A stretch of 64,000 nucleotides of DNA from Clostridium sp. CAG:780 (GTDB lineage: Bacteria; Bacillota; Clostridia; TANB77; CAG-508). Positions within the stretch are counted from its first letter, which is position 1. Every line of letters starts with the position of its first letter. This document shows, piece after piece, positions 2,316-41,799 of the stretch. The notes below the pieces were generated by a model. That model worked only from the letters and a program-made list of their open reading frames with translations. It was not told where the DNA came from and did not search any database. The position numbers were made by a program, and so were the translations under genes. The DNA lies in assembly GCA_000434195.1 (NCBI GenBank), contig HF994471.1, forward strand, positions 26,135 through 90,134, read 5' to 3'.

Positions 2316-2390
2316 TGGTGACCCCTACGGGAATCGAACCCATGATTCAGCCTTGAGAGGGCTGCGTCTTAACCGCTTGACCAAGGGGCC
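2316..2390 (-). tRNA. tRNA-Glu (anticodon CUC)
   Basis: The minus-strand 75-nt sequence GGCCCCTTGGTCAAGCGGTTAAGACGCAGCCCTCTCAAGGCTGAATCATGGGTTCGATTCCCGTAGGGGTCACCA folds as a cloverleaf. It has a 7-bp acceptor stem, anticodon loop CTCTCAA, a GGTTCGATTCC T-arm and an encoded CCA. It closely resembles Bacillus tRNA-Glu. Confidence 0.85.
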
Positions 2391-2440
2391 AATATTTTGT
2401 ACTTTATTAATATAACATTTTTCTTCAAAATAGTCAATAT

Positions 2441-2836
2441 TTAAAAGCACATTTTTAGTATTTCTTCTAATCTTTGATCTTGTTTGGTTAAGTATAAGTA
2501 TCCTATTAAGGCTTCAAACGCTGTTGAGTATCTATATTCTTCGACTGTTGAATTTTTGGGAAGATGATGGTTTTCTGCATTTCTTCCTCTTCTTACAATA
2601 TCTTTTTCGTCTTCTGTTAGATTATCATATATGTTTTTCAATATATTTGCTTGAGCTTCTGCTTTTACATATTTTATTGATTCAATATGTAACATATGTG
2701 GTTTCGACTTTTTTGTATTTACTAAATTCATTCTGATAAACAATTCATACACAGCATCTCCCACATATGCCCAAGTAAGTGGTGACATTGTGTTTACTTC
2801 TGATATATCTTTTTCTCTGTTTATTATTTCTATCAT
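2441..2836 (-). CDS. mrnC: Mini-ribonuclease 3 (Mini-III)
   Basis: The motifs AYVGDAVYEL, RRGRNA and YRYSTAFEALIGYLYL match Mini-III/YazC. Confidence 0.8.
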   Translation of the reverse strand: MIEIINREKDISEVNTMSPLTWAYVGDAVYELFIRMNLVNTKKSKPHMLHIESIKYVKAEAQANILKNIYDNLTEDEKDIVRRGRNAENHHLPKNSTVEEYRYSTAFEALIGYLYLTKQDQRLEEILKMCF

Positions 2837-2839
2837 TTT

Positions 2840-3763
2840 TTACCTTTCTACTTTTTCTAGCGTAATTCTTCCTAAATTTCCGCTTCTAAAATCATCTAAT
2901 ATTATTTTTGATACTTTATTTAAATCTATTGTATTTCCTTTTGCTACTGCTCCTCTTTTTTCTCCTATGTAGTTCATCACTTCTACTATTCGCTCATTTT
3001 CCGCAAGTTGATCGGTTGAAAGTATTTTTTCCACTACTTCTGAATTTAGAGAATATCTGTCAACTACTGCTTGTCTATATTCTTCAAGTAAGTATTTTAA
3101 CAAGTTATACGCAATCTCCACTTCATCTAGTATCTCGCTTTTGATTGTACCTGTATATGCTAGATTTAAAGCTATTTCTTCTTTCTCTAATCTAGGCCAT
3201 AACACTCCTGGAGTATCTAGTAATTCTATGTTATTAGATAAACGTATCCATTGTTTTTGTTTTGTTACTCCTGGTTTATTTCCAACTTGCATCGCCACTT
3301 TATTCGACACTCTGTTTATAAATGATGACTTTCCTACATTTGGTACTCCTAGTATCATTGCTCTTATTATTTTTGAGGTTCTTCCTTTTGCTCTTTGCTT
3401 TTCTAGTTCTTCTTGCATTACTTCATTTATTTGTTTGGTTATTTTGTTTATCCCTTCTCCTTTATTTGAATCACATAATATTGATGGTATACCTTTCTTT
3501 GCAAAATATTCTACCCATTTTTTGTTTTCTTTTTCTTCTGACAAGTCTGCTTTATTTAATATTATTATTCTGTTTTTATTTTTTATTATTTTTTGCACTT
3601 CTGGGTTCTGGCTAGAAATTGGTATTCTAGCATCTAGTATTTCTATTATTATATCTACTAGTTTAACATCTTGTTCTATTTGATCCATGGCTTTTTTCAT
3701 ATGTCCGGGATACCAGTTGATATTTGTACTTGCACAACTTTTTTCATTACTCATTTTACTCAC
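2840..3763 (-). CDS. rbgA: Ribosome biogenesis GTPase A (YlqF/RbgA)
   Basis: The N-terminal WYPGHM signature, circularly permuted GTPase motifs (NKADL before GVPNVGKSS) and DTPG are all present. Confidence 0.85.
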   Translation of the reverse strand: MSKMSNEKSCASTNINWYPGHMKKAMDQIEQDVKLVDIIIEILDARIPISSQNPEVQKIIKNKNRIIILNKADLSEEKENKKWVEYFAKKGIPSILCDSNKGEGINKITKQINEVMQEELEKQRAKGRTSKIIRAMILGVPNVGKSSFINRVSNKVAMQVGNKPGVTKQKQWIRLSNNIELLDTPGVLWPRLEKEEIALNLAYTGTIKSEILDEVEIAYNLLKYLLEEYRQAVVDRYSLNSEVVEKILSTDQLAENERIVEVMNYIGEKRGAVAKGNTIDLNKVSKIILDDFRSGNLGRITLEKVER

Positions 3764-4277
3764 CTACTTTATAATTTAATTGTTTTCTCAATTCTAATAA
3801 TTTTTCTTTATCTTCTTTATATTCAAATCTTGGTTTTACAAAATTTTTTGAACCTCTTTTTTCAAATGAATATCGTGGAATTAATTGAATATGAAAATGA
3901 TTCATTGGTCCATCACACATTGTACAAAGATATACACTTTCAGCATTATAAACATCTTTTAAAATATTCATTATTTTTTTAGCTAATACAAATATTTCAT
4001 TACATGTTTCATCATCTATTTCCATCATATCTTTATAATGTGTTTTAGTGCTTATTGCAGTATGTCCATCTGCTCTTGGATTTCCTACTAAAAAGCATTC
4101 GAATTTGTCATTTTCAAATATCATTTTATCAGTATTGTCTCCATATAAAATATGATTGTTCTTTTTATCAAAGCAAGTAGGACAAATTCCTGAATCAACA
4201 ATATCAGCCACTTCTACTTTTCCACTTTTTATTAAATCAACTATTTCTTCATTTTTTAATTGCTTTAAATTATCCAT
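3756..4277 (-). CDS. HIT-like domain protein
   Basis: A histidine-triad-like motif HFHIQLIP lies near the C-terminus, preceded by a Cys pair (CPTCF). The gene overlaps the rbgA start by 8 nt. Confidence 0.4.
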   Translation of the reverse strand: MDNLKQLKNEEIVDLIKSGKVEVADIVDSGICPTCFDKKNNHILYGDNTDKMIFENDKFECFLVGNPRADGHTAISTKTHYKDMMEIDDETCNEIFVLAKKIMNILKDVYNAESVYLCTMCDGPMNHFHIQLIPRYSFEKRGSKNFVKPRFEYKEDKEKLLELRKQLNYKVGE

Positions 4278-4296
4278 TTCATCTCCTATTTATTAA

Positions 4297-4986
4297 TTAT
4301 TTTCTTTTAAACTCTATTTTTATTGATCCATCTTTATTTAAGTATATCATATTTATCAAATCATAAATATACTTTCTATTCAACTTATCTATTTGGGTTG
4401 TTTGTCTATTACTTATTTCTGTAATAACTTTTTCCTCTAAAATATCTTTTCTTATTGTATGTTTATTATCGCATCCTCTTTTTCTCACATAAGATGAACA
4501 AGCATAATATGTATATTCTTTACTCTTTCTAATAGTCAAGTTACTATCACATTCTGTACATTTCAAATATCCTGAAAAAATGTCATATTCATTATTTGAA
4601 TTTACTTTTACTGAATGTTTAATTATATCTTGCACTCTTTCAAATTGCTCTTTGCTTATTATCTCCATATGATTATTCTTTGTGATTATTAACTCGTCTT
4701 CTCTTGTTTTTACAAATTTATGATTTTTGAAACTAATTCGTTTTCGCTTTTGTTGAATTAAATCTCCAATATATACTTTATTATTTAGGACTCCAATAAT
4801 CATACTGATATTCCACATCTTTCCTTCATCCGAGTTTTTAATATATTCCATTGGAGTTTTGATTTTTTTATTATTTAAAATATCTACTATTTCTTTCTTG
4901 CTTAAGCCTTTTTCTATACTGTCAAATATCATTTTTACATTTTCAGCTGCTTCTGTGTCAATAATTATTTTATTCTTTATACATCA
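4297..4986 (-). pseudogene. Remnant of a large serine recombinase: recombinase and zinc-ribbon domains only, N-terminal resolvase catalytic domain missing
   Basis: The protein WNISMIIGVLNNKVYIGDLIQQKR...YLKCTECDSNLTIRKSKEYTYYACSSYVRKRGCDNKHTIRKD matches the recombinase and Zn beta-ribbon domains of large serine recombinases. The reading frame is closed by a stop at 4984-4986, only about 17 codons upstream of the first ATG, so the roughly 140-aa catalytic domain is absent. Confidence 0.6.
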
Positions 4987-5001
4987 CTTCCTTTATATTT
5001 A

Positions 5002-6276
5002 CTATATTAATTTTTTCGAATTTTCAACTATTCCTTTAGTTAATTCAACATTATGATATTTCTTTAAATGACCTGTATCATTCCAAATTCTATAAATGAT
5101 CATTCTTTGTTCTAAAAACTTTATTTCATTTAACTCTTTATAGTACTTTTTTATATAGTTCCAAATGTTTTTATAGTCCTCTGGCTTTTGATATGGATCC
5201 ATCTCAATATCCGCCCATTTCCATGGTTGTTCTTGACACATATATAATAATCTAAATTCAAAATCAATTGGTGCTTGTATAGAATCATTAAAATCAATTA
5301 TTGTGAGTTTTCCATTATTATAAATAACATTATCAAAATGTAAATCATTATGAATCAATGCAAATTTATTATCAGATAAATATTCATCATATTTATCTAT
5401 ACTTTCTAATATCATATTGTAATCTTTAATTTTAAAATATTTTTTACATTTGATAATTCTATTTTTTATTTCGCCTTTAATTTTATTTTTCCAGTCATAT
5501 TCTTTTCCATTAACTGAATGGAATTTTTTTATTATATCAATTAGTTTTTCTATTGTTTTTTCTCTATCTGCTTCATTCATTTTATACCAATAATAATAAA
5601 GTGTTTTTCCTTTTATTTTCTCTATAACTTCATATATATAATCACAATCCACTTTTGAATCATCATATTTATATAATTTGGGAATAAAACAATTATCCTT
5701 ATTAGATAAATAAAAATCTTTTTCATTTTCGAAAGTATTTTCCAATTCTTTATTAGTGCATACTTTAATTACATATTTATCATTAATATTAAATAGTGTA
5801 TTATTAAATCCTGAATTTATTTCTTCTACTTTAACTATATTTCCAAGTAAATCTGTATTTTTACTTGCTATACTTTTTCCTAGTTTTAATCTCTCTTCGA
5901 CTAAATTTTTAGTAACTTTAAATATTTCAAAGATTATCTTATCATCTTCTTTAAAATTTGGATTAACAGATTTAAAAAAATTCAAATGAACTTGTTTCCA
6001 ATAATTAAGTGATAAATCTCCTTCACCTTCTAACTTTGCAAGTTCTTCTGTCATTTCGTTATACTTTATTATTTTGTAATCTACTGTTTCTACTATACAA
6101 GCATCCTTTTCATTATCAAAATGAATAATCGACTCTTTCCCAATTACCGGAATTTTATCAAAGTTATATAAAGATGATGTAGCAGTTTTCTTTCCTTCTA
6201 ACACTAATCCAATTAATTTGTCATTGTCTATTCCGAAACTCCAATTATTCATTTTATCACTCCTTTTTATTTCCAT
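5002..6276 (-). CDS. Fusion protein: N-terminal ASCH domain plus C-terminal aminoglycoside-phosphotransferase/choline-kinase-like kinase domain
   Basis: The N-terminus NNWSFGIDNDKLIGLVLEGKKTATSSLY is ASCH-like. The C-terminus has the Brenner motif LIHNDLHFDNVIY and IIDFNDS (a DFG equivalent) of the APH/protein-kinase-like fold. Confidence 0.5.
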   Translation of the reverse strand: MEIKRSDKMNNWSFGIDNDKLIGLVLEGKKTATSSLYNFDKIPVIGKESIIHFDNEKDACIVETVDYKIIKYNEMTEELAKLEGEGDLSLNYWKQVHLNFFKSVNPNFKEDDKIIFEIFKVTKNLVEERLKLGKSIASKNTDLLGNIVKVEEINSGFNNTLFNINDKYVIKVCTNKELENTFENEKDFYLSNKDNCFIPKLYKYDDSKVDCDYIYEVIEKIKGKTLYYYWYKMNEADREKTIEKLIDIIKKFHSVNGKEYDWKNKIKGEIKNRIIKCKKYFKIKDYNMILESIDKYDEYLSDNKFALIHNDLHFDNVIYNNGKLTIIDFNDSIQAPIDFEFRLLYMCQEQPWKWADIEMDPYQKPEDYKNIWNYIKKYYKELNEIKFLEQRMIIYRIWNDTGHLKKYHNVELTKGIVENSKKLI

Positions 6277-7183
6277 CTCCCAATAATTTTATTTTTTCTG
6301 CATTGTTAAGTATATCTAATTGATATTTCGCAATTTTACTTAAAATTTCAAATCTCTCTTCTTTGCTTTTTCCTTCTTTTATTATATTAAGTATATTTAA
6401 TTGATACTTTGCAATTTCACTTAATATTTCAAATCTCTCTTCTTTGCTTTTTCCTTCTTTTATTAATTCAGCATTATGTGATTCTAAATTTGATAATACT
6501 GTTAATTCATTTATTGTAGCATAATCTCTAACATTTGAATTCTTAGCTAAATCAGGATTAAGTTCTCTCCATTTCTTAGCCGTTGTGTTAAATATGACTA
6601 CATTTAAAATATCAGCTTCTTCAGCATATTTTAACCATTCTCTATTTTTATAAAAATCATTATCTGGCAATATGTAATTTTTAATTGCATCTGTATGTAT
6701 TAAATAATTGTTTTTCGTTAATATTCTTTTTACATCCCATTCTCTGTTTTGATTTTCAATTTCCTTTAATCTCTCAAATTCTTTTATTAAATATAATTTG
6801 AATACAGGGCTTATTGCAGAAGCAAATTCAAATGCAATATCTTTATGTGCATATGTTCCTCCGTATTTTCCTCGTTTTGAATATATACCAATTGCATTTG
6901 TCTTTTCACACCATTCTGTAACACTTAATGTAAATGTGTGAAGTCCTGCACTTTTTCTAAACCCGTCGAATTCGACGGAATTAAAATTTGGATTATAAAT
7001 CGACTCCCATGTTCCTAAAAATTCCAAAGTAATTCTATTTCTTAGCCAGTTTCTTATAATGTCATCAGCTTTCGATTTTCCCTCTTTGTATTTACCAAAA
7101 TCAGAAATACAAATATAATCATTATCATCTATATTTGTAATATTTACTTTAATATTTTGAACTTCTATTATTTTATTTGACAT
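6257..7183 (-). CDS. KilA-N domain protein (phage-associated) with an internal C-terminal tandem repeat
   Basis: The N-terminal region ISDFGKY...RNWLRNRITLEFLGTWESIYNPNF...AGLHTFTLSVTEWCEKTNAIGIYSKRGKYGGTYAHKDIAFEFA matches KilA-N/Bro-N. The C-terminus repeats IKEGKSKEERFEILS-IAKYQL-ILN twice. Confidence 0.6.
   Translation of the reverse strand: MSNKIIEVQNIKVNITNIDDNDYICISDFGKYKEGKSKADDIIRNWLRNRITLEFLGTWESIYNPNFNSVEFDGFRKSAGLHTFTLSVTEWCEKTNAIGIYSKRGKYGGTYAHKDIAFEFASAISPVFKLYLIKEFERLKEIENQNREWDVKRILTKNNYLIHTDAIKNYILPDNDFYKNREWLKYAEEADILNVVIFNTTAKKWRELNPDLAKNSNVRDYATINELTVLSNLESHNAELIKEGKSKEERFEILSEIAKYQLNILNIIKEGKSKEERFEILSKIAKYQLDILNNAEKIKLLGDGNKKE
6306..6467. repeat. Direct tandem repeat of about 81 bp, two copies about 95 % identical, inside the KilA-N gene
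   Basis: ttaagtatatctaattgatatttcgcaattttacttaaaatttcaaatctctcttctttgctttttccttcttttatta at 6306 recurs at 6387 with a few substitutions. Confidence 0.8.
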
Positions 7184-7242
7184 ATATTCACCTCCAATTT
7201 ATCAAATTACGAAAGATAAAAATTTGAAAAAATGTTGTTTTT

Positions 7243-7371
7243 TCAATAGTTTCGGCTAGTGTTTAGATAATTCGTACTTTCCCAGTTAATATTCATTTGT
7301 TTTTGCACTTCTTTTTTATTTTCATTAATTTTTATTTCTTGTCTTTTTTTCCTTTTTTGATACATATCCAT
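7243..7371 (-). CDS. Small basic hypothetical protein (41 aa)
   Basis: Minus-strand ATG at 7371 follows a GGAAG ribosome-binding site. The product MDMYQKRKKRQEIKINENKKEVQKQMNINWESTNYLNTSRNY lies next to the phage-like genes. Confidence 0.25.
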   Translation of the reverse strand: MDMYQKRKKRQEIKINENKKEVQKQMNINWESTNYLNTSRNY

Positions 7372-7442
7372 TTTAATCACTTCCTTTTCATTTTTTATTC
7401 TCCATTATTTACAATAAATTCAACTTATAAATATCTATTCCT

Positions 7443-8210
7443 TTAGCAGCAATCCCAATCTACTACAGAATTAGTAAAGTTACCTTTTTCTATATCTTCT
7501 CTAGAAATTAGTGCAAATATAATTCCACAATCACCAATCATAATTCCATTGCCTATATTACTATCAATTTTAAATAAACATTCTTCTTTTAAATCTCCTA
7601 TTTCTCTAGGATCTGTCTGAGTGAAGTCTGCATATCCTCCAATATTTCCATTCAAAATAGACATTTCTTCATAAAAAACATTATATAAGTCTATATCATT
7701 AGATTCAAAAAGATCTATTATTTCCTTATAATTTTTTAGCTCTATGCCTATTTCTTCTTTAATTATTTCTTTCATAACATTTGCAAATCTATAATCATTT
7801 ATTGGCATGTGTTCTATATTCTTTTTTAATTTTATTTTTAGTGGTTTCTTAATTATGTAATTATTTGATGGAAACTCTGGTAAATCAGTTCTATATTCAA
7901 GATTTTCTTCGAAATACTTTATTTTATAATCGGCTGGCCAGCTACATTCTTTATCTATAAATACTTCCAATATTCCTTTTTTTGGATAGCCATCTAATTC
8001 AATATCTTTTAAATTAATTTGTATTAGCAAAATCATTGGGTTACCATCTTCATCTAGAGGATATTCTTCTCCCTTAGGCATATATGCTTTGCCTCCTATT
8101 TTATTATCTTTTATTCCAATATCTTCGCTATTATCTATAACTATTTCGTAACATTCTTTTTTAGTTTTATTCTTATAAATCTCAATAACTTTTCTTAATT
8201 TTTCCTTCAT
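7443..8210 (-). CDS. DUF1963 (YwqG-like) family protein
   Basis: NKIGGKAYMP near the N-terminus and the C-terminal GDCGIIFALI...DWDC pattern match YwqG/DUF1963 proteins. Confidence 0.4.
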   Translation of the reverse strand: MKEKLRKVIEIYKNKTKKECYEIVIDNSEDIGIKDNKIGGKAYMPKGEEYPLDEDGNPMILLIQINLKDIELDGYPKKGILEVFIDKECSWPADYKIKYFEENLEYRTDLPEFPSNNYIIKKPLKIKLKKNIEHMPINDYRFANVMKEIIKEEIGIELKNYKEIIDLFESNDIDLYNVFYEEMSILNGNIGGYADFTQTDPREIGDLKEECLFKIDSNIGNGIMIGDCGIIFALISREDIEKGNFTNSVVDWDCC

Positions 8211-13189: not shown

Positions 13190-15688
13190 TTAAAAATTAT
13201 TTCTCATTTTGTTTAATGTTTCGTTCATGCTACTGTTGAACGTTTGATTTTTCTTGTTATAATCATTATAGTTCTTGTCTTGAACTTTTCTTTGTCCCCC
13301 TGCTATTAGTGGATATACCATATCTCCTAATTTATTTAATGCTTCTAAGAACATTTTTGAATAGCCATTTAGTGAGATTTCGCAATCAACCATTCTTTCT
13401 AGATATTTTGCATATGTTTGTGTTTCAAATGGTATTGTTGTATATCTTACTTTGTCTTTATCAAATAGTGTGTTGATATATGTTGATGCAGGATCATTAT
13501 AACAAGATATTCCTCCAATTATTAATTGGTCTGTTAGTTTTCTTAAGCTTAATGCTTTGTTTATTACTATTCTTAGTTTGTTTTGGTCTAGTATATTTCT
13601 ATATTTTAGTTCATTTAAGAATAGTGTTAATGGTTGAATTGTTAGTATGTCATATGTTTGAACTAAATATAGTTCTTGTGCTTTTGCAAAGTAGTTGATG
13701 TTTGTATTAAAATCACAATCTAATAATATTAAAGAATGATTTTTTACTAATGTTTCTAAAATATTTCCATAATCGTCATATTCTGAATCATCGTCTTTTG
13801 CAACATTTGTGTAGACTGTAAGATTTTTGTCTACTTGAATTCCCTCTGCAACTCCTCTTCTTAGTCCTTCTATACATCTAAATGCTCTATCTCTTAGGCT
13901 GTCCTCGTTTAATGTATAAATGTAATAAGAGTTCTTGTTTTTTGTAAGGTCTAAAATTGCTGTATTTATTCCTTTACTTGATAATAATGCCGCTAAGTTG
14001 TTTACTAGGAATGAAGTTCCATTTTTTGATGTTCCCACAAATGCTACTATTTTTTTGTCGCCTGTTAATAATGTTGATAGTCTGTCATTATCTTGGTAAA
14101 TTGAGTTTTGTTCAACAGCTGCTGGGACATTATTAATATAATTATTTTGTGGTCTTTGGAAGTTGTTTGTTTCTGGCCTAATTTGTTGACTTACTTGGTT
14201 GTTATTAACTTGTAAATCGTCTTCTTCGTTTTCCACTATTTTTGGAGGTTCTACAACTTCTTCGTCATCCTCATCAAATCCTGGCAATATTGTGGCTTTT
14301 TCTTGTTCTTCTTTGTTTGCCACGATTTCTTCATCTTCTTCATCTAATAAGCCTGGTAATATTCCAGTATTTTCTTCTGGTTGTTCTTTTTCTTCTTCAA
14401 ATCCTGGTAGAGTAGTGGCTTCTTCTTTTTCATCCTCATTTTCATCAGACATATTGAACAAGTCTACTTCTTCTTGTTTCTCCTCTTGTGGTTCTTCTAC
14501 TATTTTTTTAGGTCTGCCTCTACCTTTTTTTACTTTATTCTTTTCTTCTTCAAGCTCTTCAGGTGTTTTTTCTTTCTTAGGTCTGCCCCTGCCTTTTTTA
14601 ACAGGTTCAGCTGTTTGTTCTTCTATGTCGTCTATCTTGTTAGCAACATCTACTGTTGCTAATCTCTTATCTAATTCCTCTTCTATGCTATTTTTGGTCT
14701 CATTTTTTATTTCCGGTTCAAGTCTAGGTAATGTTTCTTCTATTTGAGGTTCTATTATCTTTTCTACCTTAGGCTCTTGAATTTCTGGTTGCTGTGGAAC
14801 TTCTGGTTTTGTATATGCTTTTCTTACATCTTGCATGTTTATTGTAGAAGGTATTACAACCGGTTTTGTAAGTCTTGATTTTTGAAGTTCTTTGTCTATT
14901 AAGTCTATTTTGTTTCCTCTTGAATTTGATATACTTTTTGTTGTATATTTGTTATTTTCTTGTCTTCTTTGTGCTGCTACTTGTCCTTTTACACTTCCTA
15001 TCATTACTTGTTGGTATTTAGGGCTTCTCTCTTCTAGAACTGCTCTAACATTTAGAGGCAAAAATTTTGTAATAAGTTTTAATTGTGTATCAGTATACTG
15101 TTCTGCTATGTCATTAAAACTTTCTACATATTTTTCTTCGTCTTTTCCTAATTTTCTGTAATGTTTGATTATGTTTTGTATTTCTGTTTCACTAACACTG
15201 TCTGGGTCTACTAGTTGATAATCAACATCTTCTGCTTCAATTCTGTAATATGCTTTTGCTTCTTTTTTTGTACGAGGTTGCGCTATTAATTTACAAACAT
15301 TTTCTATACTTCTGTCTTGTCCTAATAACACGTTATATATTCCTATTCCAAATAGTTTAACCAGAATAGCACTACCTTTTTCTCGTCTATCTGCACCTAT
15401 AAGGATAATAGGAATATCTCCTTCTCTGCTATTTGAAGCCTCGTCACTTATACTATCAAGTTTATCAAATAAGAAATTATCGATAACCTCATAGTTGTTA
15501 TTTGCATATGGCTCTAAATCTTCTCCTATGACGATTCTGTCATAAGATTTATCTTTTTGTAATTCTTTTATTATCGCATTGAAAAAATATACATTTTTAC
15601 ATGAAATTATTTCTTTATACATCATTTGATATTTTTTTATGATGGCTGTCGAAACTTTTTCATTATTTACAGCGAATAAAACTTTCAT
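13190..15688 (-). CDS. Large (832-aa) protein with an N-terminal receiver-like domain, a central acidic low-complexity region containing two AT-hooks and LPGF repeats, and a C-terminal degenerate ParA/MinD-like (TadZ/CpaE-like) domain
   Basis: KKGRGRPKK occurs twice, and (T/I)LPG(F/L)(D/E)EE is repeated. The C-terminus KIVAFVGTSKNGTSFLVNNLAALLSSKGINTAILDLT resembles a deviant Walker A ATPase. There is a GGAGGGG ribosome-binding site. Confidence 0.45.
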   Translation of the reverse strand: MKVLFAVNNEKVSTAIIKKYQMMYKEIISCKNVYFFNAIIKELQKDKSYDRIVIGEDLEPYANNNYEVIDNFLFDKLDSISDEASNSREGDIPIILIGADRREKGSAILVKLFGIGIYNVLLGQDRSIENVCKLIAQPRTKKEAKAYYRIEAEDVDYQLVDPDSVSETEIQNIIKHYRKLGKDEEKYVESFNDIAEQYTDTQLKLITKFLPLNVRAVLEERSPKYQQVMIGSVKGQVAAQRRQENNKYTTKSISNSRGNKIDLIDKELQKSRLTKPVVIPSTINMQDVRKAYTKPEVPQQPEIQEPKVEKIIEPQIEETLPRLEPEIKNETKNSIEEELDKRLATVDVANKIDDIEEQTAEPVKKGRGRPKKEKTPEELEEEKNKVKKGRGRPKKIVEEPQEEKQEEVDLFNMSDENEDEKEEATTLPGFEEEKEQPEENTGILPGLLDEEDEEIVANKEEQEKATILPGFDEDDEEVVEPPKIVENEEDDLQVNNNQVSQQIRPETNNFQRPQNNYINNVPAAVEQNSIYQDNDRLSTLLTGDKKIVAFVGTSKNGTSFLVNNLAALLSSKGINTAILDLTKNKNSYYIYTLNEDSLRDRAFRCIEGLRRGVAEGIQVDKNLTVYTNVAKDDDSEYDDYGNILETLVKNHSLILLDCDFNTNINYFAKAQELYLVQTYDILTIQPLTLFLNELKYRNILDQNKLRIVINKALSLRKLTDQLIIGGISCYNDPASTYINTLFDKDKVRYTTIPFETQTYAKYLERMVDCEISLNGYSKMFLEALNKLGDMVYPLIAGGQRKVQDKNYNDYNKKNQTFNSSMNETLNKMRNNF

Positions 15689-15692
15689 TAGT

Positions 15693-16094
15693 TTAACCCC
15701 TCCAACCTTTTACTACTATTGCGAAAACAAGTGGTAATACTTGGCATATTACAACTAGTGTAATACTTGCAATCATTAGTCCAAAGCCTTTATCTCTTAC
15801 GTCTAATTTTTTTAGTCCTATAATGTATTGATATATTGCAGCTATTATGATTGTTACAAATCCAAATGGTATACTATAAATTCTTACTTTATTTAGTAAA
15901 AATGCTGTTAATCCGTATGAATCTGATCCATATGCATTTCTATAATCTTCTAGAGTTTTTAACTCTTTGTCTTTAATTTCTATTAATTTACCTGTTGCTG
16001 TTTGTTCTACTTCTCTAGTTTCATTTGCTGCATATACTGTTACGCTCGCGAACATACAAATAACTATAGATATAATTGCAATTATTTTCTTCAT
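15693..16094 (-). CDS. Small secreted/membrane protein
   Basis: It has a signal peptide MKKIIAIISIVICMFASVTVYA and a C-terminal transmembrane segment. Confidence 0.45.
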   Translation of the reverse strand: MKKIIAIISIVICMFASVTVYAANETREVEQTATGKLIEIKDKELKTLEDYRNAYGSDSYGLTAFLLNKVRIYSIPFGFVTIIIAAIYQYIIGLKKLDVRDKGFGLMIASITLVVICQVLPLVFAIVVKGWRG

Positions 16095-16154
16095 ATAACT
16101 AACCCTTTCTATTTTTTCTATTAAATATCATTCATGTAATATTTTACACTAGAA

Positions 16155-16190
16155 TGAAAAAAATAGCAAGGAAATACTTGCTATTTTTTA
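16155..16190 (-). terminator. Rho-independent terminator downstream of mutS (bidirectional form)
   Basis: aaaaaa-ATAGCAAG-gaaata-CTTGCTAT-tttttt. Confidence 0.6.
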
Positions 16191-16229
16191 AATATTTTTA
16201 ATATTTTTTATTATTTTGTTGTTTTTTCA

Positions 16230-28877: not shown

Positions 28878-28958
28878 AGTTAAGGTTAACTGTAACTTTT
28901 AGAAAAAGCAAGACTTCACGGAGGTCTTGTGCGTTTTTGAAAGAGGAGGTTAGTTCAA

Positions 28959-29819
28959 ATGAAATTCTCGATCATCCTGCCTTGTTTCAACAGTAAGTCG
29001 TACATCAACAAGTGTGTTGATAGCATTCTCTCTCAGTCCTTCTCGGATTATGAGTTGATTGTTATTGACGATGGTTCTACTGACGGAACTTCTCAGATTT
29101 TGGACGAATACGCATCGACCTATCCTCACATTCATGTCCACCATTTTAGCAATGCTGGTGTTTCTATCGCTCGGAAGCGTGGCATCTCCCTTGCTACTGG
29201 TGAGTACTCTATCTTTGTAGACTCTGACGACACCATTGAACCTAATCATCTGGAGAATCTCAATGCGGGTATCATTAAGCACAACCATCCTGATATCATT
29301 CGGTGTCAGGTCAATCTGATTAATGACTCTCCTCACAAAGATTCTCAGCGGTACAATTTCACGTCGGGTATTGACATTCTTAATTCTGGAATCGACTCTC
29401 TGAAAATGTGGTCCATTCCCGGTAAGAAGTATGCAGTTTACTGGCTCTTTGCTTTTAAGACCAGTATTTTCTCGAAGGTTACGTTTCATCGTACCTTGAG
29501 ATGTTACGAAGATGTGGCACTGATTCCCATTCTGATTGCCAGCTCTCCTCGCGTCGTTACTATTAATCATGCTGGTTATAACTATCTTTGCAATAACTCT
29601 GATAGTTTGACCAATACTATTAGTCTCGAGGCTGAGTGTCAGCGGGCTGACGATTTCTATGAGGCCTGTCAGTTTGCCATCAAAAATTTTTCTAATCTTG
29701 AGCAGGTGTCGGAGGCCGATATTTCCTTCTTTGTTGACGACTACAATCGTCGACTCTTGAACAAATACGAGTCTCTGCCTGAGGTTCTGAAACCTCAGTT
29801 TATTCACTGGTTCAAGTAA
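28959..29819 (+). CDS. Family-2 glycosyltransferase (GT-A fold), on a compositionally foreign island of about 40-45 % GC
   Basis: MKFSIILPCFNSKSYINKCVDSILSQSFSDYELIVIDDGSTDGT has the DxD motif. The GC content and codon usage (CTG, TCG, CGG) differ sharply from the flanking DNA, which is under 30 % GC. Confidence 0.85.
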   Translation: MKFSIILPCFNSKSYINKCVDSILSQSFSDYELIVIDDGSTDGTSQILDEYASTYPHIHVHHFSNAGVSIARKRGISLATGEYSIFVDSDDTIEPNHLENLNAGIIKHNHPDIIRCQVNLINDSPHKDSQRYNFTSGIDILNSGIDSLKMWSIPGKKYAVYWLFAFKTSIFSKVTFHRTLRCYEDVALIPILIASSPRVVTINHAGYNYLCNNSDSLTNTISLEAECQRADDFYEACQFAIKNFSNLEQVSEADISFFVDDYNRRLLNKYESLPEVLKPQFIHWFK

Positions 29820-36161: not shown

Positions 36162-38246
36162 CTAATATTGATTTTTCATTGCTGTCATAGTATTGAATGA
36201 TGATGTCATACTTGTTAATCCTATAAATACTAGTGGAATAATTAGATATCCTACAAATAGTCCAACCATTGGCGCAAATCCTATTACTTTTCCAATTAAT
36301 CCCTTCTTTGAGATTAATCTGTCATTTGATTCTTTTCTTCTTGCTTGATAATATTCTCTTTCTGAATCTAGTTCATCAAATGCTTCTGCGATCGGTATTT
36401 TTTCTACTGCAGCTTGCATGCTTTCTATTAATCTTATAAATTCTTTGTAGTTTATTTCATCTTTCATTTGTTCTAGAGCTTCCCAAGGTCCACTCTCATA
36501 GTTGTTTACACATCTTGATATTGGCTCTCTAAATATATTTGAATATCTTTCTAGCCATTCTAATATCATTTCTACGTTTACTCTCTCTATTCTCATAAGC
36601 ATCAATATGATTGTCTGGAATTGCATTACTTCGTTTTCCATTTCCATCTTTCTCATTTTTGCCTGGAAGAATAATAGTGCTACTGGTAAATTGTATCCAA
36701 TTACTGCAAATACCATTGCTAAAATCATTTCAAACCAGCTTAAATACTCGCTATTAACTTGTCTCAATTTTTTCAAAACTCTTTCTGCCGCTGTTTTAAT
36801 TTCATCTGGTTGTGCATTTGCATAATCTTTTGATTTTTTCATTGCTTTTTCTATATCTTCTTGAGTTGTTTTTGTTTTTCCTTTAAACATGTCTAAGAAT
36901 CTATTGTCACTCGCAGTTAGCTCTTCTGCTTTTTTCAAGTCTTTTCCTGTCATTTCTCCTACTAGATTGAATGTTGATGTAGGTTCTGTGTATATGTATT
37001 CTATCTGCATTTTATGTAGGTATCCAAATATTAGTAAGGAACCTATAAATACAGTTATTGTTAATAATATTCTTCTTTCATATATCCAATGAATTTTATC
37101 TTTTGAAGCAGCATCTTTCATAAGATTCTTCATTTTTCTTCTTTCTTTTGTTCCATCTTTTGGTATGAATAAGTCTACGATTTTCTTTACTAATGGTATT
37201 TTGTATATTTTTTCTTCCCAAGGATTATCTGTTTTTGTATCAATAGTTGTTGAACCATTGTCTTTTAGTTTTCTTGTTAAAATATAACATACAAATGTTA
37301 GTATAACCAATAGTAATTGAACTATCATACCTTGTTTTCCATAGTAAAACGATTTTGTGAATGAGAATTCTTTTACTGCCCAGTTTTTTATTGGTTCCAA
37401 TGCTAGTAATGGCACAATCGCTATTACTGATAAGCTTTGGAATACATAATTTAATTTATCTCTTTTTAATATTTCTAGTTGCATCTCTTGGCTTATATTG
37501 TTTAAGTTCTTCAAGTATAAAGATGTTTTATCTACTGTTCTATCTCCAAATTCTTTCGTAAGATACGATATACCAGCAAATTCTTTTAAGAAGCTGTTTG
37601 GTGCAATGTCGTAATATTTTTCTAATTCTCCTTCCGGATCATCAGATATTAATATTTCGTATATTTTCTCTGCTTGTCTAGACATTTCTGGTGCACTATC
37701 ACCTTGTGCAACCTGATATATTGCCTCTTCAACCATGTTAAACTCGTGGTATGCATGTCTTATTTCTGCAAAGAAATCTATTTGTTGAATTAGTAGCTTA
37801 TTGTCTATTTTGTCAACCATTCCATCTACTAATGTATCTATCATAAATAATTCAAATATCAGTAAAATCGATAGCAATAGTCCATTGCTTTTTGTAATAA
37901 ATATTATTGCTAGTGTTATTGGAATTATTATCAACAATGCTTTTGTTAATATTTCCGAAGTCTGTTTTCTTGTTAAATACTCATCATCAATGTTTATTAT
38001 TTCTAGTCTTCTTCTTATTTTAAATAGATATCTTTTTATAAAAGGAGACCTCAAATATCTAACATATAGCTTTTGATATAATATCTCTTTCGAGAATTTT
38101 TGCTCCTTTGTTCCTTTTCTTAATTGTCTAATTTGTACTATGTCTGATGATTGTGTTTTCTTTTTTAATAACAAGAATGCAACTACAATACCAGCAAGTA
38201 TCACTGCTGCTCCAATCATCATGTATAATATAATATTTCCATTCAT
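36162..38246 (-). CDS. Fused TadB/TadC-like platform protein (two T2SS-F-like domains, 694 aa)
   Basis: Polytopic membrane protein with two cytoplasmic helical domains, sited next to the secretion ATPase. Its 694-aa length fits a TadB-TadC fusion. Confidence 0.5.
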   Translation of the reverse strand: MNGNIILYMMIGAAVILAGIVVAFLLLKKKTQSSDIVQIRQLRKGTKEQKFSKEILYQKLYVRYLRSPFIKRYLFKIRRRLEIINIDDEYLTRKQTSEILTKALLIIIPITLAIIFITKSNGLLLSILLIFELFMIDTLVDGMVDKIDNKLLIQQIDFFAEIRHAYHEFNMVEEAIYQVAQGDSAPEMSRQAEKIYEILISDDPEGELEKYYDIAPNSFLKEFAGISYLTKEFGDRTVDKTSLYLKNLNNISQEMQLEILKRDKLNYVFQSLSVIAIVPLLALEPIKNWAVKEFSFTKSFYYGKQGMIVQLLLVILTFVCYILTRKLKDNGSTTIDTKTDNPWEEKIYKIPLVKKIVDLFIPKDGTKERRKMKNLMKDAASKDKIHWIYERRILLTITVFIGSLLIFGYLHKMQIEYIYTEPTSTFNLVGEMTGKDLKKAEELTASDNRFLDMFKGKTKTTQEDIEKAMKKSKDYANAQPDEIKTAAERVLKKLRQVNSEYLSWFEMILAMVFAVIGYNLPVALLFFQAKMRKMEMENEVMQFQTIILMLMRIERVNVEMILEWLERYSNIFREPISRCVNNYESGPWEALEQMKDEINYKEFIRLIESMQAAVEKIPIAEAFDELDSEREYYQARRKESNDRLISKKGLIGKVIGFAPMVGLFVGYLIIPLVFIGLTSMTSSFNTMTAMKNQY

Positions 38247-38284
38247 ATTTTAGGCTTTTGCACCTCCTTTTTAGATGATGTTTA

Positions 38285-40204
38285 TTATGCTTCTTCTTTC
38301 ATCATATCAGCATCTCTATGTGCTTCAATTCCCCAATTTTTCTTAACGAATTTCTTGAACTCTTCAGCATCTGTATCATCCATGTTGTTTAGCATAGCCT
38401 TGATATTTTCTTCTGATATTGGGTTTGTTAGTACATATGTACCATCATGATATTCTAGTATATTTCTGTATTGGTATAATTCTCTGTTTGTTGTTTTTGT
38501 AAAGAACATTGTTGCATTATCCATGAATTTTTCTATTTTCTTTTCTGTTGTTTTTTCTTTTCTGTAATCAAATGTATATTCGTTTCTTTCTTCTACTGGT
38601 ATACATTCTGTTATTCTTTCTATGTATCTTCTTCCTCTGAAGTCCTTTACTAAGTGGATATCAAAGTTTAATACTTGTACAACTTGCTCTTCTGCTGTTC
38701 TTTCATCTTTGAACACTCCTGCTCTAAGCATTGAGTTTCTTAGTGCTGTAACTAAGTCTGGGAATGTTTTAGCGTGGTGAGTAAATAATGTAAATTTAGA
38801 AGCAACCTGTGCAGATTGGATCATCCAAGATGCTACGGGGTCAGTTGCAACCTCACCGATGATGTTAACAGAACCATCAGTCTTTTTCTGAACGTCCAAG
38901 CAGGCCTGTCCAGAAATTGTTTCTGTTTCACGCATTGATAATATGTTTCTTGTTGGATATATTTTTCTTAAGTGAAGCTCGAATGCAGTTTCTGTAATAC
39001 GAAGGTTCATTGTTTCGTATATGTTTTCTATCATCGCCATAAGCATTGTTGTTTTACCACAACCCTGCTCACCAGTAAGCGATATGATTCTTGCTCCTTT
39101 TACTAAGTATTTTAATAAATCTATTGTTTCGTCTTTTCCAGGGAATTTTACTATTTGTTCTAGTGTTGCTCTCTTTACGTCGAACTTTCTTACGAAAAAT
39201 GCCCATGTTTCTGACATGCTTGGTCTAACAACAACGACACGAGAACCGTCTTTCATTTCATTGATTTTGTAACCATTTGTGTCTGATAATTGTCCTGGGT
39301 TATTGAATTTGTATATATTCTGACAAACTCTCTTTAATTCTGCTTCTGTTCCAAATGACAAGAATGCAAGTCTTATTGATTTACCACGGAACATTATCCA
39401 AATACTATCACAAGCACGTGGTACTTTGTGTTCTACTATTTGTCCTAAATAATCTCCATCTGTTTGTGCTACTTGGCTTAAAAAGCTTTCTGGAAGTCCA
39501 GATACACCACCAGATATACCATCTATGTTCATGTCTCTTATTTCATCTATACTGCTATATCCTTTGTAATGTTGATATATTCTTTGTACAACTATGCTTA
39601 ATTTATCTTGGAATGTTAATGCAAAGTTTTCTTTTTCATATATATCTGAAATTTCTTCTGGCGTTATTACGTAAGAAGGTTTTGATTCTCCTGCCACATA
39701 TTTTAACTCGTCTAATTTGTATTTCTTTATTATTTCTGATAAAGCTTCATATCCGAATTCAGATTTATACATATATAGTATAATATCAAATTTATCTTGT
39801 GCTGTTAAAAGTGATGGTACATCAAAAGGAATTGCTTTTGATACATTTATCTCGTCAACTCCATATTCGTTGTAAAGCATGTCATATATTAATTCCTTAA
39901 TATATTTCTTATCATTTACATCTCCATATGTACAGCCTTTTAACGCTTTTTTCAATTCGTATTTCTTGTTCTTTCTTCTTTTTAATTCTTCTTCTGAAAG
40001 ACCTATATCATATAAATTGATTTTTGTGATTTCGTCTAATCTCTTCTTTACAAATTCTGTCATTGTGCTTAATGTGTATGTTGCATCATCTACTTGAATT
40101 TGTTCTTCAACTTCTTGGTTTTGTTTGTTTGTTATGAACTTGTGAACAATCGCAACTGCTACACCTATTACAATGGCCATTAATATTAGATTAGTTATAT
40201 TCAT
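38285..40204 (-). CDS. CpaF/TadA-like secretion ATPase (VirB11 superfamily) with an N-terminal TM anchor and a roughly 300-aa N-terminal extension
   Basis: Walker A LTGEQGCGKTT, a Walker B-like NIIGEVATDP and a His-box-like FTHHAKTFP are present. The N-terminus is MNITNLILMAIVIGVAVAIV. Confidence 0.65.
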   Translation of the reverse strand: MNITNLILMAIVIGVAVAIVHKFITNKQNQEVEEQIQVDDATYTLSTMTEFVKKRLDEITKINLYDIGLSEEELKRRKNKKYELKKALKGCTYGDVNDKKYIKELIYDMLYNEYGVDEINVSKAIPFDVPSLLTAQDKFDIILYMYKSEFGYEALSEIIKKYKLDELKYVAGESKPSYVITPEEISDIYEKENFALTFQDKLSIVVQRIYQHYKGYSSIDEIRDMNIDGISGGVSGLPESFLSQVAQTDGDYLGQIVEHKVPRACDSIWIMFRGKSIRLAFLSFGTEAELKRVCQNIYKFNNPGQLSDTNGYKINEMKDGSRVVVVRPSMSETWAFFVRKFDVKRATLEQIVKFPGKDETIDLLKYLVKGARIISLTGEQGCGKTTMLMAMIENIYETMNLRITETAFELHLRKIYPTRNILSMRETETISGQACLDVQKKTDGSVNIIGEVATDPVASWMIQSAQVASKFTLFTHHAKTFPDLVTALRNSMLRAGVFKDERTAEEQVVQVLNFDIHLVKDFRGRRYIERITECIPVEERNEYTFDYRKEKTTEKKIEKFMDNATMFFTKTTNRELYQYRNILEYHDGTYVLTNPISEENIKAMLNNMDDTDAEEFKKFVKKNWGIEAHRDADMMKEEA

Positions 40205-40228
40205 GGTATTTTCTCCTTTCGCTAAGGC

Positions 40229-41074
40229 TTATACTTTAGCTTGTAGTTCTTTTAACTTAAATAATATGTTATCACATGTCTTTTTTGCTTCTTGTATAAA
40301 TAATACATTTTTATCTGTTTGATCTGTTAAGCTTCTATATTTTAAAAAGTAATCTGCAACTTTTCCTTCTGAAGCTGCTTCGCTGAACAAAGTGTTATAT
40401 GATATTGCCGATATTGTTCTGCTTTCTTTTAAATATCTGCTTGTATTTTTTGTGTTGTATTTTGAATATCTGTCATATTTTCCTAATAATAATAATGATC
40501 GATTCATTTTAAATACTGGATTTTTTTCTCTTAGTCTATCAAATTCGTTCAACGAATCCATGCCTTGCTTAAATGTTATTACTATTGCATCCGATGCTTG
40601 AAGAATTGCTCTTTTGTGTTCTTCCTTCATTCTTTTATCTATATCTATAAAAACTATATTATAATTTTTATCAGCAATTTTAACTAGTTCAGGATAGTAC
40701 TGTGTAATTGAATCATACGCATCTCTATGAGTTGTGCTTGGTGCTACTAGTACATCCAATCTTTCTCTAAAAACTACCTTTGCATAGTCTGCAACAACGT
40801 TTGTAGATGTTCTATTGCTTTGAAGAACTTTTACCAATCCTTCTATTCCGTTGTTCATTCCGACGTCTCTGGTTCTGGTTCCTAATATATCTTTTAACGT
40901 GTCATCTTTTTCTTGTTCCCAAAAGCAATTTTCTACTGTTCTATCTTTGAACCCAGTTGCTACTTCTAATATTTTGAAGTTATGATTGATAGCCATAAGT
41001 GTTGCTATTGCTACCGAAGCCAATGTTTGGCCTGTTTCCTTTTCGCTATCACTCCAAAAAGATACTATTGCCAT
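40229..41074 (-). CDS. CpaE/TadZ-like ParA-fold protein with a degenerate Walker A (paralog 2)
   Basis: VSFWSDSEKETGQTLASVAIATLMA replaces the canonical KGGVGKTT motif, so ATP binding is doubtful. Confidence 0.4.
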   Translation of the reverse strand: MAIVSFWSDSEKETGQTLASVAIATLMAINHNFKILEVATGFKDRTVENCFWEQEKDDTLKDILGTRTRDVGMNNGIEGLVKVLQSNRTSTNVVADYAKVVFRERLDVLVAPSTTHRDAYDSITQYYPELVKIADKNYNIVFIDIDKRMKEEHKRAILQASDAIVITFKQGMDSLNEFDRLREKNPVFKMNRSLLLLGKYDRYSKYNTKNTSRYLKESRTISAISYNTLFSEAASEGKVADYFLKYRSLTDQTDKNVLFIQEAKKTCDNILFKLKELQAKV

Positions 41075-41075
41075 A

Positions 41076-41774
41076 TTACATTCCTCTTTCTAATTGTTTA
41101 AATGCTCTTTTTACAGCATTTGATCTTTCATCATGCACTATTTCTGATGCTAGATAAACGAGTGCATCTTTGTATTCTGTGCTTAATCCTTTATATTTTA
41201 TTTTTTCTGTTCTTTGGTTTTCCATTATTACTTCTTGATCACTTGTTTGTAATGGAAAATATATTTTTTCGTCTTGCCATTTTATTTTATAACCTAATGA
41301 TAGATAGTTTAGATATTCATCTTCCTCATCTGACATTATATTTGAAAAGTATATTTTCGTTAATTGTACCGGTAATTTTATTCCACTCAAAACTTCTAGT
41401 CCTTTTTTTAGTGAGAATAAATCTGCAGAAGTTACAAAATAGTTTCTATTTGCTTCATATATTCCAAAGCTCTCTATTGATTCAGCTTTATCCATGTCTA
41501 TCATTATATAGTCATATGTTAGGGCTGCCGTTTCTGGCATCCCTAAATATCTTTTTATTCCATTGTAGTCTGAAAAGCCAACAGCTACATCTATTCCTTC
41601 ATACTCTGTTACATACGACATCGTCGGGCTAATAACTGGAACAACGTATTTAGCTTTTTGATTTACAGTTGAGTCAATTATTAATACTTTTTTGCCCATC
41701 TCGACTAAAATTCTAGAAACATATATCAAGAAATCTGTTTTGTCAAATGTTCCAATAAAGCCTATTTTCTCCAT
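41076..41774 (-). CDS. CpaE/TadZ-like ParA-fold protein with a degenerate Walker A (paralog 1)
   Basis: IGFIGTFDKTDFLIYVSRILVEMGKKVLIIDST has MinD/ParA-like topology but lacks the GKT/S motif. Confidence 0.4.
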   Translation of the reverse strand: MEKIGFIGTFDKTDFLIYVSRILVEMGKKVLIIDSTVNQKAKYVVPVISPTMSYVTEYEGIDVAVGFSDYNGIKRYLGMPETAALTYDYIMIDMDKAESIESFGIYEANRNYFVTSADLFSLKKGLEVLSGIKLPVQLTKIYFSNIMSDEEDEYLNYLSLGYKIKWQDEKIYFPLQTSDQEVIMENQRTEKIKYKGLSTEYKDALVYLASEIVHDERSNAVKRAFKQLERGM

Positions 41775-41799
41775 TGTTCCCTCCGATTATTTTAATTCT

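Follow-up and report, generated by a model that had tools for sequence, protein, structure and literature searches.

The spatial organisation of chromosomes and division sites, of flagella and pili, and of organelles depends on ATPases of the ParA/MinD class, which cycle on the nucleoid or on the membrane. ParA itself binds DNA non-specifically, through the surface of its ATP-bound dimer. These A/D ATPases bind either the membrane, by a membrane-targeting sequence (MTS), or the nucleoid via their C-terminal regions (PMC11407121). The CpaE/TadZ proteins comprise an atypical REC domain, an atypical ATP-binding domain and a C-terminal amphipathic helix, and the deviant Walker A motif of TadZ binds ATP for dimerisation (PMC13170226); the Walker-A-like consensus of TadZ reads K/RGGXGXS/T (bioRxiv 10.64898/2026.07.08.737194). 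Here, we describe X832, a protein of 832 amino acids (aa) encoded on the minus strand at positions 13190..15688 of a 64,000-nucleotide (nt) stretch of Clostridium sp. CAG:780 (contig HF994471.1; the whole stretch is hereafter termed the window), whose GC content is 29%. This open reading frame (ORF), taken from the ORF listing, was confirmed as initially annotated.

The reading that we favour, tentatively and with slightly less than even confidence, is that X832 is a lineage-specific scaffold, or landmark, built on the TadZ/CpaE plan and placed outside the Tad pilus system, which would bridge the nucleoid and the envelope. The evidence lies in two predicted folds at the ends of the protein, in a pair of AT-hooks conserved within an otherwise hypervariable linker, and in a genomic context shared with an adjacent membrane protein.

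Domain architecture of X832

The features of X832, all on the minus strand and in order from the N-terminus, are as follows.

15281..15688, minus strand: pseudo-receiver domain, aa 1-136, (βα)5 fold, from AlphaFold2 (AF2) and Foldseek
14993..15280, minus strand: basic motif QPRTKKEAKAYY, then a bundle of four helices, aa 137-232 (helices within 167-221), from the AF2 model
14813..14914, minus strand: conserved linker segment NKIDLIDKELQKSRLTKPVVIPSTINMQDVRKAY, aa 259-292, nearly invariant in the family branch that carries AT-hooks
14087..14800, minus strand: hypervariable, acidic, disordered linker of low complexity, aa 297-534, ~240 aa, net charge -38
14573..14599, minus strand: AT-hook 1, KKGRGRPKK, aa 364-372, R-G-R-P core
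14504..14530, minus strand: AT-hook 2, KKGRGRPKK, aa 387-395, R-G-R-P core
14456..14473, minus strand: EEVDLF, aa 406-411, a [DE][IV]DLF short linear motif, from the alignment of homologues
14390..14416, minus strand: acidic LPG unit 1, TTLPGFEEE, aa 425-433
14327..14365, minus strand: acidic LPG unit 2, GILPGLLDEEDEE, aa 442-454
14258..14293, minus strand: acidic LPG unit 3, TILPGFDEDDEE, aa 466-477
13304..14056, minus strand: MinD/ParA-fold domain, aa 545-795, from AF2, Foldseek and family profiles
14009..14041, minus strand: degenerate P-loop FVGTSKNGTSF, aa 550-560, with G552, K555 and G557 invariant and T558 at the Walker A lysine position
13709..13732, minus strand: Walker-B-like strand LILLDCDF, aa 653-660, with D657 and D659 invariant
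13193..13243, minus strand: C-terminal tail TFNSSMNETLNKMRNNF, aa 816-832, conserved and predicted to form a short helix beyond a disordered spacer

The AF2 model of the N-terminal part reached a predicted local distance difference test value (pLDDT) above 85 over residues 1-150, with strands and helices in the order found in CheY. Foldseek matched it to DesR, VraR, RcsB, Spo0A and the CpaE N-domain with a probability of 1.00, and the matches of lowest root-mean-square deviation (rmsd) include the receiver-like N-domains of CpaE (4n0p, 4dn6 and 4dad; 3.4-3.7 Å, template-modelling (TM) score 0.62-0.69). The phospho-acceptor pocket of receivers is not conserved: D12/D13 are replaced by G/N and N, T87 by C/G/A, and K109 by an invariant Leu, while the end of strand β3 carries an invariant Glu56. 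Having neither the Asp-Asp pair nor the Thr or Lys of receivers, this domain is a pseudo-receiver that cannot undergo canonical phosphorylation. The Pfam Response_reg model gave no match on X832, and a profile of the N-domain returned no meaningful match among PDB sequences.

The basic motif and four-helix bundle that follow are conserved in both branches of the family. This region bears on a different view of X832, namely that its main role is in DNA architecture or transcription, with a NarL-like pseudo-response regulator (receiver plus four-helix HTH-like module) reinforced by HMGA/CarD-type hooks and an acidic region, and with the MinD-like domain as an oligomerisation or regulatory module only. 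The best Foldseek matches of the N-terminal model are indeed full-length NarL-family regulators (DesR, VraR and RcsB), over ~240 aligned columns, and HMGA and CarD have as their hallmark AT-hooks combined with an acidic region (PMC2919716). However, the TM scores of these matches, normalised to the query, are 0.30-0.35 with an rmsd of 11-15 Å, and therefore the receiver alone superposes. Moreover, a profile of the four-helix bundle produced only scattered noise against PDB and Pfam, with no consistent helix-turn-helix (HTH), GerE, Pfam or PDB match, and the hook-less branch described below keeps the N-module with membrane-type motifs in place of a DNA-binding motif. We consider this transcription-factor view improbable.

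At the other end of the protein, the AF2 model of the C-terminal part (pLDDT 78.8; predicted TM score 0.76) matched in Foldseek the ParA structure 3ea0 (E=1.7e-8), followed by MinD, FlhG, FleN, BcsQ, Soj and NifH, all with a probability of 1.00. A C-domain profile built from an alignment of both branches (~33-100% identity) matched the tyrosine kinase (BY-kinase) CapAB in PDB (E=1.1e-3), from the P-loop to Walker B; Pfam CbiA matched 5 of 28 divergent members, with E values down to 2.5e-5, and weak Pfam MipZ matches were also found in divergent members. X832 itself gave no CpaE/TadZ or CbiA/ParA match in Pfam or NCBIfam with E values up to 10, and since direct scans found neither a receiver nor a ParA match, a family-level and structural approach was needed. 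The initial annotation had read X832 as a receiver-like N-terminus joined to a degenerate ParA-like C-terminus, that is, the TadZ/CpaE plan. This architecture is borne out by AF2 and Foldseek; as for detection by profiles, the direct Pfam and NCBIfam searches of the terminal domains failed, and it was the family-level CapAB (1.1e-3) and CbiA (5/28) matches and the Foldseek probability of 1.00 that sustained the assignment.

The nucleotide-binding site of this domain is degenerate. Across the family the P-loop reads G552-[TA]-[SN]-K555-x-G557-T558-[ST]559, so that T or A stands at the position of the MinD signature lysine K11, T at that of the Walker A lysine K16, and an invariant Lys at that of MinD G13; the register rests on our own alignment to the MinD and Soj sequences. 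The remaining site residues are invariant in 24 sequences (~33-100% identity), comprising D580 in switch I, D657 and D659 in Walker B, Q677, D680 and N710. By analogy with TadZ, we infer that the C-domain would bind nucleotide with little or no hydrolysis.

Beyond the ATPase domain, the C-terminal tail retains F817, M821, T824, L825, N826, M828 and R829 as invariant residues. The disordered spacer preceding it holds the short sequence N-Y-N-D-Y (aa 806-810; 13259-13273), in which Y810 is invariant and the other four residues are conserved in at least 90% of members; it faintly recalls the tyrosine clusters of BY-kinases, which are also the best PDB sequence-profile matches of the C-domain.

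Linker motifs and the two branches of the family

A word-indexed search recovered 6701 homologues of X832, none of which has a name or a Pfam domain. When 1.84 billion representatives were searched exhaustively with a profile, 761 clusters were found at E<=1e-3, 255 of them at E<=1e-30. GTDB species genomes contained 60 loci, every one in a metagenome-assembled genome (MAG) assigned to uncultured 'Clostridia' or to 'Clostridium sp. CAG'; the samples were human, chicken, rabbit, mouse, rumen and oral. Thus, the X832 family is conserved but phylogenetically narrow. Its N-module and C-domain are strongly conserved throughout, while the linker between them is hypervariable in both length and sequence.

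The low-complexity interruption proposed in the initial annotation was recovered as the roughly 240 residues of this linker, and its two perfect KKGRGRPKK AT-hooks were found as claimed. Charge is unevenly distributed, with an island of +6 around the hooks followed by a net charge of -33 over aa 401-500. Among six-frame ORFs of at least 60 aa in the window (~36,000 residues), the two hooks are the sole matches to [KR]x(0-1)RGRP[KR]. In the alignment of homologues, three elements stand out as conserved within the hypervariable linker: the LPG units, the [DE][IV]DLF motif and the hook pair. None of 30 non-redundant homologues departs from the R-G-R-P cores, although the surrounding columns cannot be aligned, and a hook number of exactly two, mostly with a spacing of 17-28 aa, was counted in 83 of 150 representatives. 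The [DE][IV]DLF motif is conserved after hook 2 in close homologues and recurs, at times twice, in distant members.

Three acidic LPG units are clear, one fewer than the four initially annotated; a possible fourth and degenerate unit, ETLPRLEPE (aa 318-326), is encoded outside the interval of about 14200-14620 that had been assigned to the repeats. By our own arithmetic, the linker composition predicts ~0.005 such motifs by chance, as opposed to the three found, and chance is rejected for the hooks and for the motif set because both are conserved across species. The DNA beneath these units had been described as imperfect tandem repeats. Three LPG copies of ~70 nt with 61-70% identity (14249-14441) and two hook copies of 30 nt with 87% identity (14504-14602) do occur, but the repetition is weak, and Tandem Repeats Finder reported trivial 9-nt runs and nothing meaningful in the region.

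Within the species, defined here by 30 members of at least 90% identity, the length is 832 aa in 25, two hooks are present in all 30 and three LPG units in 29, so the expectation of a repeat number varying between strains was not borne out. Strain-level substitutions cluster in the linker (26 of 34, for instance). Between species, anything from 0 to 11 LPG copies is found. Since the copy number is fixed within the species, the repeats are neither phase-variable nor a slippage artefact. A contingency locus with variable tandem repeats was accordingly discarded as a candidate: Tandem Repeats Finder gave no meaningful repeats, the copies share only 61-70% identity and their number is fixed in the 30 strain-level variants.

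The hypervariability of the linker in length and sequence, together with the spread of LPG copies between species, might also be expected if hooks and LPG motifs were non-functional by-products of low-complexity expansion in a spacer that matters for its length only. This seems highly improbable, given the invariance of the R-G-R-P cores amid unalignable columns, the prevalence and spacing of hook pairs, the fixed copy numbers within the species and the covariation of the motif set with the type of C-terminal tail. The hook unit itself can be amplified, as seen in P0196, a homologue of 618 aa that ends inside the linker and is probably truncated; it carries six AT-hooks between aa 458 and 583 with a regular 25-residue period.

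A second branch of the family (P0211, P0244 and others; ~30% identity) keeps both folded modules and has neither AT-hooks nor LPG motifs. Its members end in 'KKRGLFG', and most have a similar K[KR]GLFGILK directly after the N-module, at the position taken in X832 by the segment NKIDLIDKELQKSRLTKPVVIPSTINMQDVRKAY, which AF2 models with low pLDDT. In our reading, these motifs look like MinD-type amphipathic membrane-targeting sequences, by comparison with KKGFLKRLFGG of MinD. When the motif sets of 196 full-length members were compared, hooks were present in 68, of which none had the GΦF motif, 61 had a TLNKM-type tail and 55 had LPG units. Among the 128 members without hooks, 118 had GΦF/GΦΦG motifs and only eight had an LPG motif, a single one. 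The 'KKRGLFG' motifs of hook-less relatives stand in corresponding places, which suggests, from sequence comparison, that the family may have given up tethering to the membrane in favour of tethering to DNA. The linkers of hook-less members such as P0330 and P0367 (aa ~240-300) are rich in E, K and R, as in EEKRLEEERLKKEREEEE, and have the look of a single charged α-helix, in contrast with the acidic disordered linker of X832.

The X832 cassette and the Tad-like locus

Three features flank X832 in its cassette.

16095..16229, minus strand: mutS-mem133 intergenic region, with a palindromic hairpin and T-runs at 16158-16189 and a promoter-like site at 16169-16141
15693..16094, minus strand: mem133, the upstream partner gene, encoding a signal or transmembrane segment plus two transmembrane helices
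12067..13164, minus strand: GGDEF-like downstream gene, encoding a single-transmembrane protein with a degenerate GGDEF domain in which MGPKF replaces GG(D/E)EF

The stop codon of mem133 lies 4 nt before the ATG of X832, and X832 is translationally coupled to this small membrane protein of 133 aa and three transmembrane segments, which matches no Pfam or NCBIfam family. The hairpin with T-runs and the promoter-like site, identified by consensus matches only, separate mem133 from mutS. Downstream, the GGDEF-like gene begins 25 nt past the X832 stop codon, and ireB follows it after 9 nt. The order mem133 - X832 - GGDEF-like - ireB - ruvX - DUF1292 is kept in nearly all of the 60 GTDB loci, with mutS-miaB upstream of the cassette in the closer genomes only. 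X832 precedes ireB-ruvX in all the genomes examined, in a predicted operon with these two genes. In the hook-less branch, locus L061 has a 133-aa gene 4 nt upstream of the X832 homologue and ireB-ruvX-DUF1292 after it; the GGDEF-like gene is missing.

Compared with the closest genome (L001, 5595-8427, aligned to 13190-16094 of the window), MutS and MiaB show 99% protein identity, and X832, mem133 and the GGDEF-like protein 73%, 83% and 89%, respectively. The drop in identity is local and centred on the mem133-X832-GGDEF-like cassette.

This gene order raises the possibility that X832 is a regulator linked to cyclic di-GMP (c-di-GMP) and acting together with the neighbouring membrane protein of degenerate GGDEF domain, on the model of the FleN-FleQ and BcsQ-BcsE pairs. 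The GGDEF-like gene accompanies X832 throughout the AT-hook branch, and the structural matches of the C-domain include FleN and BcsQ. Nevertheless, the divergent branch keeps mem133, the X832 homologue and ireB in the absence of the GGDEF gene. Having MGPKF instead of GG(D/E)EF, the GGDEF-like protein is probably not an active cyclase; reading its sequence by eye revealed no RxxD I-site, and no c-di-GMP-binding motif was identified in X832. Such a regulator would be quite an unlikely explanation.

The initial annotation had related X832 to CpaE-like genes 25 kb away in a pilus-like operon. This Tad-like locus, more than 20 kb from X832, contains the following features.

36162-42705: Tad-like locus as a whole, with a CpaB-like gene, two short ORFs with degenerate P-loops, a TadA-like ATPase and a 694-aa ORF without an assigned family
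41800-42705: CpaB-like SAF-domain protein
41076-41774 and 40229-41074: a pair of short ORFs lacking a receiver, each with a degenerate P-loop; faint MinD matches for the latter
38285-40204: TadA/T2SSE-like ATPase

X832 could accordingly be the functional TadZ/CpaE of this genome, localising the Tad-like pilus machine of 36-43 kb and supplying a receiver in trans to the two short degenerate MinD-like ORFs. The locus, with its CpaB-like and TadA-like genes, has no canonical REC-containing TadZ within the window. X832 shares the domain plan, having an N-terminal atypical receiver and a C-terminal atypical MinD/ParA-fold domain, with CpaE N-domains among its closest structural matches; the canonical Walker A lysine is absent from X832 as it is from the TadZ consensus; and a helix, in X832 predicted with low pLDDT, follows the ATPase domain. 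Several differences, however, make this pilus role unlikely. The P-loop G-[TA]-[SN]-K-x-G-T-[ST] lacks the K/RGG signature, and no CpaE/TadZ sequence model in NCBIfam or Pfam matches X832. The protein is twice the size of TadZ, and what is known of TadZ biology offers no role for its extra four-helix module or for its 240-aa acidic linker with AT-hooks. X832 also lies outside a tad/cpa locus, with mem133, the GGDEF-like gene, ireB and ruvX as neighbours, and in neither the divergent branch nor the 60 species loci does a Tad gene stand beside the family gene. The proposed link to the pilus locus thus finds no support in the 60 genomes, which place the gene with mem133 and ireB-ruvX.

Paralogy between X832 and the Tad-locus ORFs was likewise unsupported, with BLASTP E values of 0.008 and 0.14 and, even in profile-profile comparison, hhalign E=0.012-0.016 at a probability of ~3%; the 232-aa ORF is colinear with the X832 C-domain at a non-significant level (E=0.012, probability 3.5%). 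The match to the distant CpaE-like genes claimed at the outset (BLASTP E=0.008; hhalign E=0.012-0.013, probability ~3%) is not significant. In summary, X832 is TadZ/CpaE-like in architecture and is not a member of the TadZ family, from which its locus, its Walker-A-like sequence and its lack of sequence-model matches set it apart.

Elsewhere in the window, Spo0A is encoded at 23036-23827 (Spo0A_C 8e-14) and another Spo0A lies ~5 kb from the X832 homologue of L061; the lineage therefore carries the master regulator of sporulation. Spo0A in the window adjoins a 487-aa protein with a weak HATPase_c match (21317-23827). The region 2319-8210, downstream of a tRNA gene (2319-2390), may be the remnant of a mobile element: it includes a serine-recombinase fragment (4297-4932) with Recombinase and zinc-ribbon domains and no match to the resolvase catalytic domain, an ASCH-APH fusion, a KilA-N protein and a DUF1963 protein, and its GC fraction falls to 0.23 at 4-6 kb. 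The most GC-rich stretch (0.35), at 28950-29819, holds two ORFs on opposite strands, 285 and 286 aa long, that are almost exact mirror images of each other; the one on the minus strand has no Pfam match. The stretch has no Rfam match, and an Rfam scan of the window returned one tRNA only.

A candidate nucleoid-envelope scaffold and its known relatives

In the scaffold reading that we favour, the C-domain would bind nucleotide and dimerise as TadZ does, with slow or no hydrolysis, while the two AT-hooks would hold X832 on the minor groove of A/T tracts. Such tracts are everywhere in a chromosome of 29% GC, so that hook-based DNA binding would be constitutive and not gated by ATP as in ParA. The [DE][IV]DLF and (T/I)LPG(F/L)[DE] motifs may serve as multivalent docking sites for one or more partner proteins, and the acidic motifs may also damp the hooks, as the acidic tail of HMGA does. 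Through mem133, the C-terminal helix or both, the complex could be connected to the membrane, and the resulting bridge between nucleoid and envelope would position something, its likeliest role being to organise the chromosome or to control the division site. The AT-hook tether to DNA is plausible from the sequences, and is strengthened by the conservation of the hook pair in a hypervariable linker and by its mutual exclusion with MinD-type motifs.

Several points weigh against this scaffold. The Pfam AT_hook model scores 15.4 bits on X832, below its cut-off of 17.4. The exclusion between hooks and GΦF motifs, absolute in the 196 members, is confounded by phylogeny, as the members fall essentially into just two clades. 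That nucleotide would be bound in the absence of the Walker A lysine is an assumption drawn from the TadZ analogy. On the membrane side, the tail helix is modelled by AF2 with low confidence (model residues 298-308), its hydrophobic moment is modest and it lacks the basic face of the MinD MTS, while mem133 would offer a cytoplasmic loop of ~17-20 aa, in our own reading of its topology, as the sole contact surface. Furthermore, the host organisms are uncultured.

A bolder version, which we consider unlikely, is a tether swap within a single ParA/MinD-class family. Ancestral 'KKRGLFG' membrane motifs would have been replaced by eukaryote-style AT-hooks, leaving a catalytically crippled A/D protein constitutively on the AT-rich nucleoid, where an array of acidic ΦPGΦ/DLF peptides, similar to the FtsZ C-terminal peptide, the SSB tail or clamp-binding peptides, would capture division or replication proteins; X832 would then be a new nucleoid-occlusion or chromosome-anchoring factor of an uncultured order of gut Clostridia.

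The X832 family keeps the fold and the receiver-ATPase plan and appears to have abandoned the ATP-gated switch, and one of its clades appears to leave matrix binding to AT-hooks. If the DNA tether is real, it would provide the ParA/MinD superfamily with a second route to the nucleoid, and X832 would be a conserved factor of cell organisation in gut Clostridia that are abundant, uncultured and small in genome, and whose cell biology is essentially undescribed. The AT-hook/LPG/TLNKM and GLFG motif sets of the two clades would constitute a natural experiment on the choice of matrix.

Among the described relatives, MinD, FlhG and FleN share the fold of the X832 C-domain, and divergent family members end in a MinD-like basic-amphipathic sequence ('KKRGLFG'). 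However, both lysines of the deviant Walker A motif (KGGxGK[ST]) are missing from X832, which also lacks a MinC/MinE or FlhF context and has AT-hooks and a non-basic tail. ParA and Soj likewise share the fold, and the nucleoid is the proposed matrix for both these proteins and X832, but in X832 DNA binding would fall to the AT-hooks of the linker, the ATP site is degenerate and there is no parB/parS context. The best PDB sequence-profile matches of the C-domain, with E values of 1.1e-3 and 0.17, are the BY-kinases CapB and Etk, aligned from the P-loop to Walker B; in contrast to them, X832 has no Walker A lysine, no C-terminal tyrosine cluster beyond N-Y-N-D-Y and no polysaccharide co-polymerase partner.

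The AT-hook motif is rare in bacteria, and CarD was reportedly described in 2010 as the sole prokaryotic HMGA-like protein. A literature search combining AT-hook with MinD/ParA returned nothing relevant and no paper joining the two, and a protein built like X832 is not known to have been described. Multiple AT-hooks beside a highly acidic region characterise both CarD and HMGA (PMC2919716), and the hooks of X832 similarly adjoin a highly acidic region within a disordered segment, as in the C-terminal domain of Myxococcus CarD. Unlike CarD, X832 has no CarD_CdnL_TRCF domain, carries two hooks instead of four, places the acidic region after the hooks, uses the hook module as a linker between two folded domains, and belongs to Firmicutes and not to myxobacteria. 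X832 therefore resembles CarD and HMGA in the hook-plus-acidic module only, set within a protein that otherwise follows the TadZ/CpaE plan.

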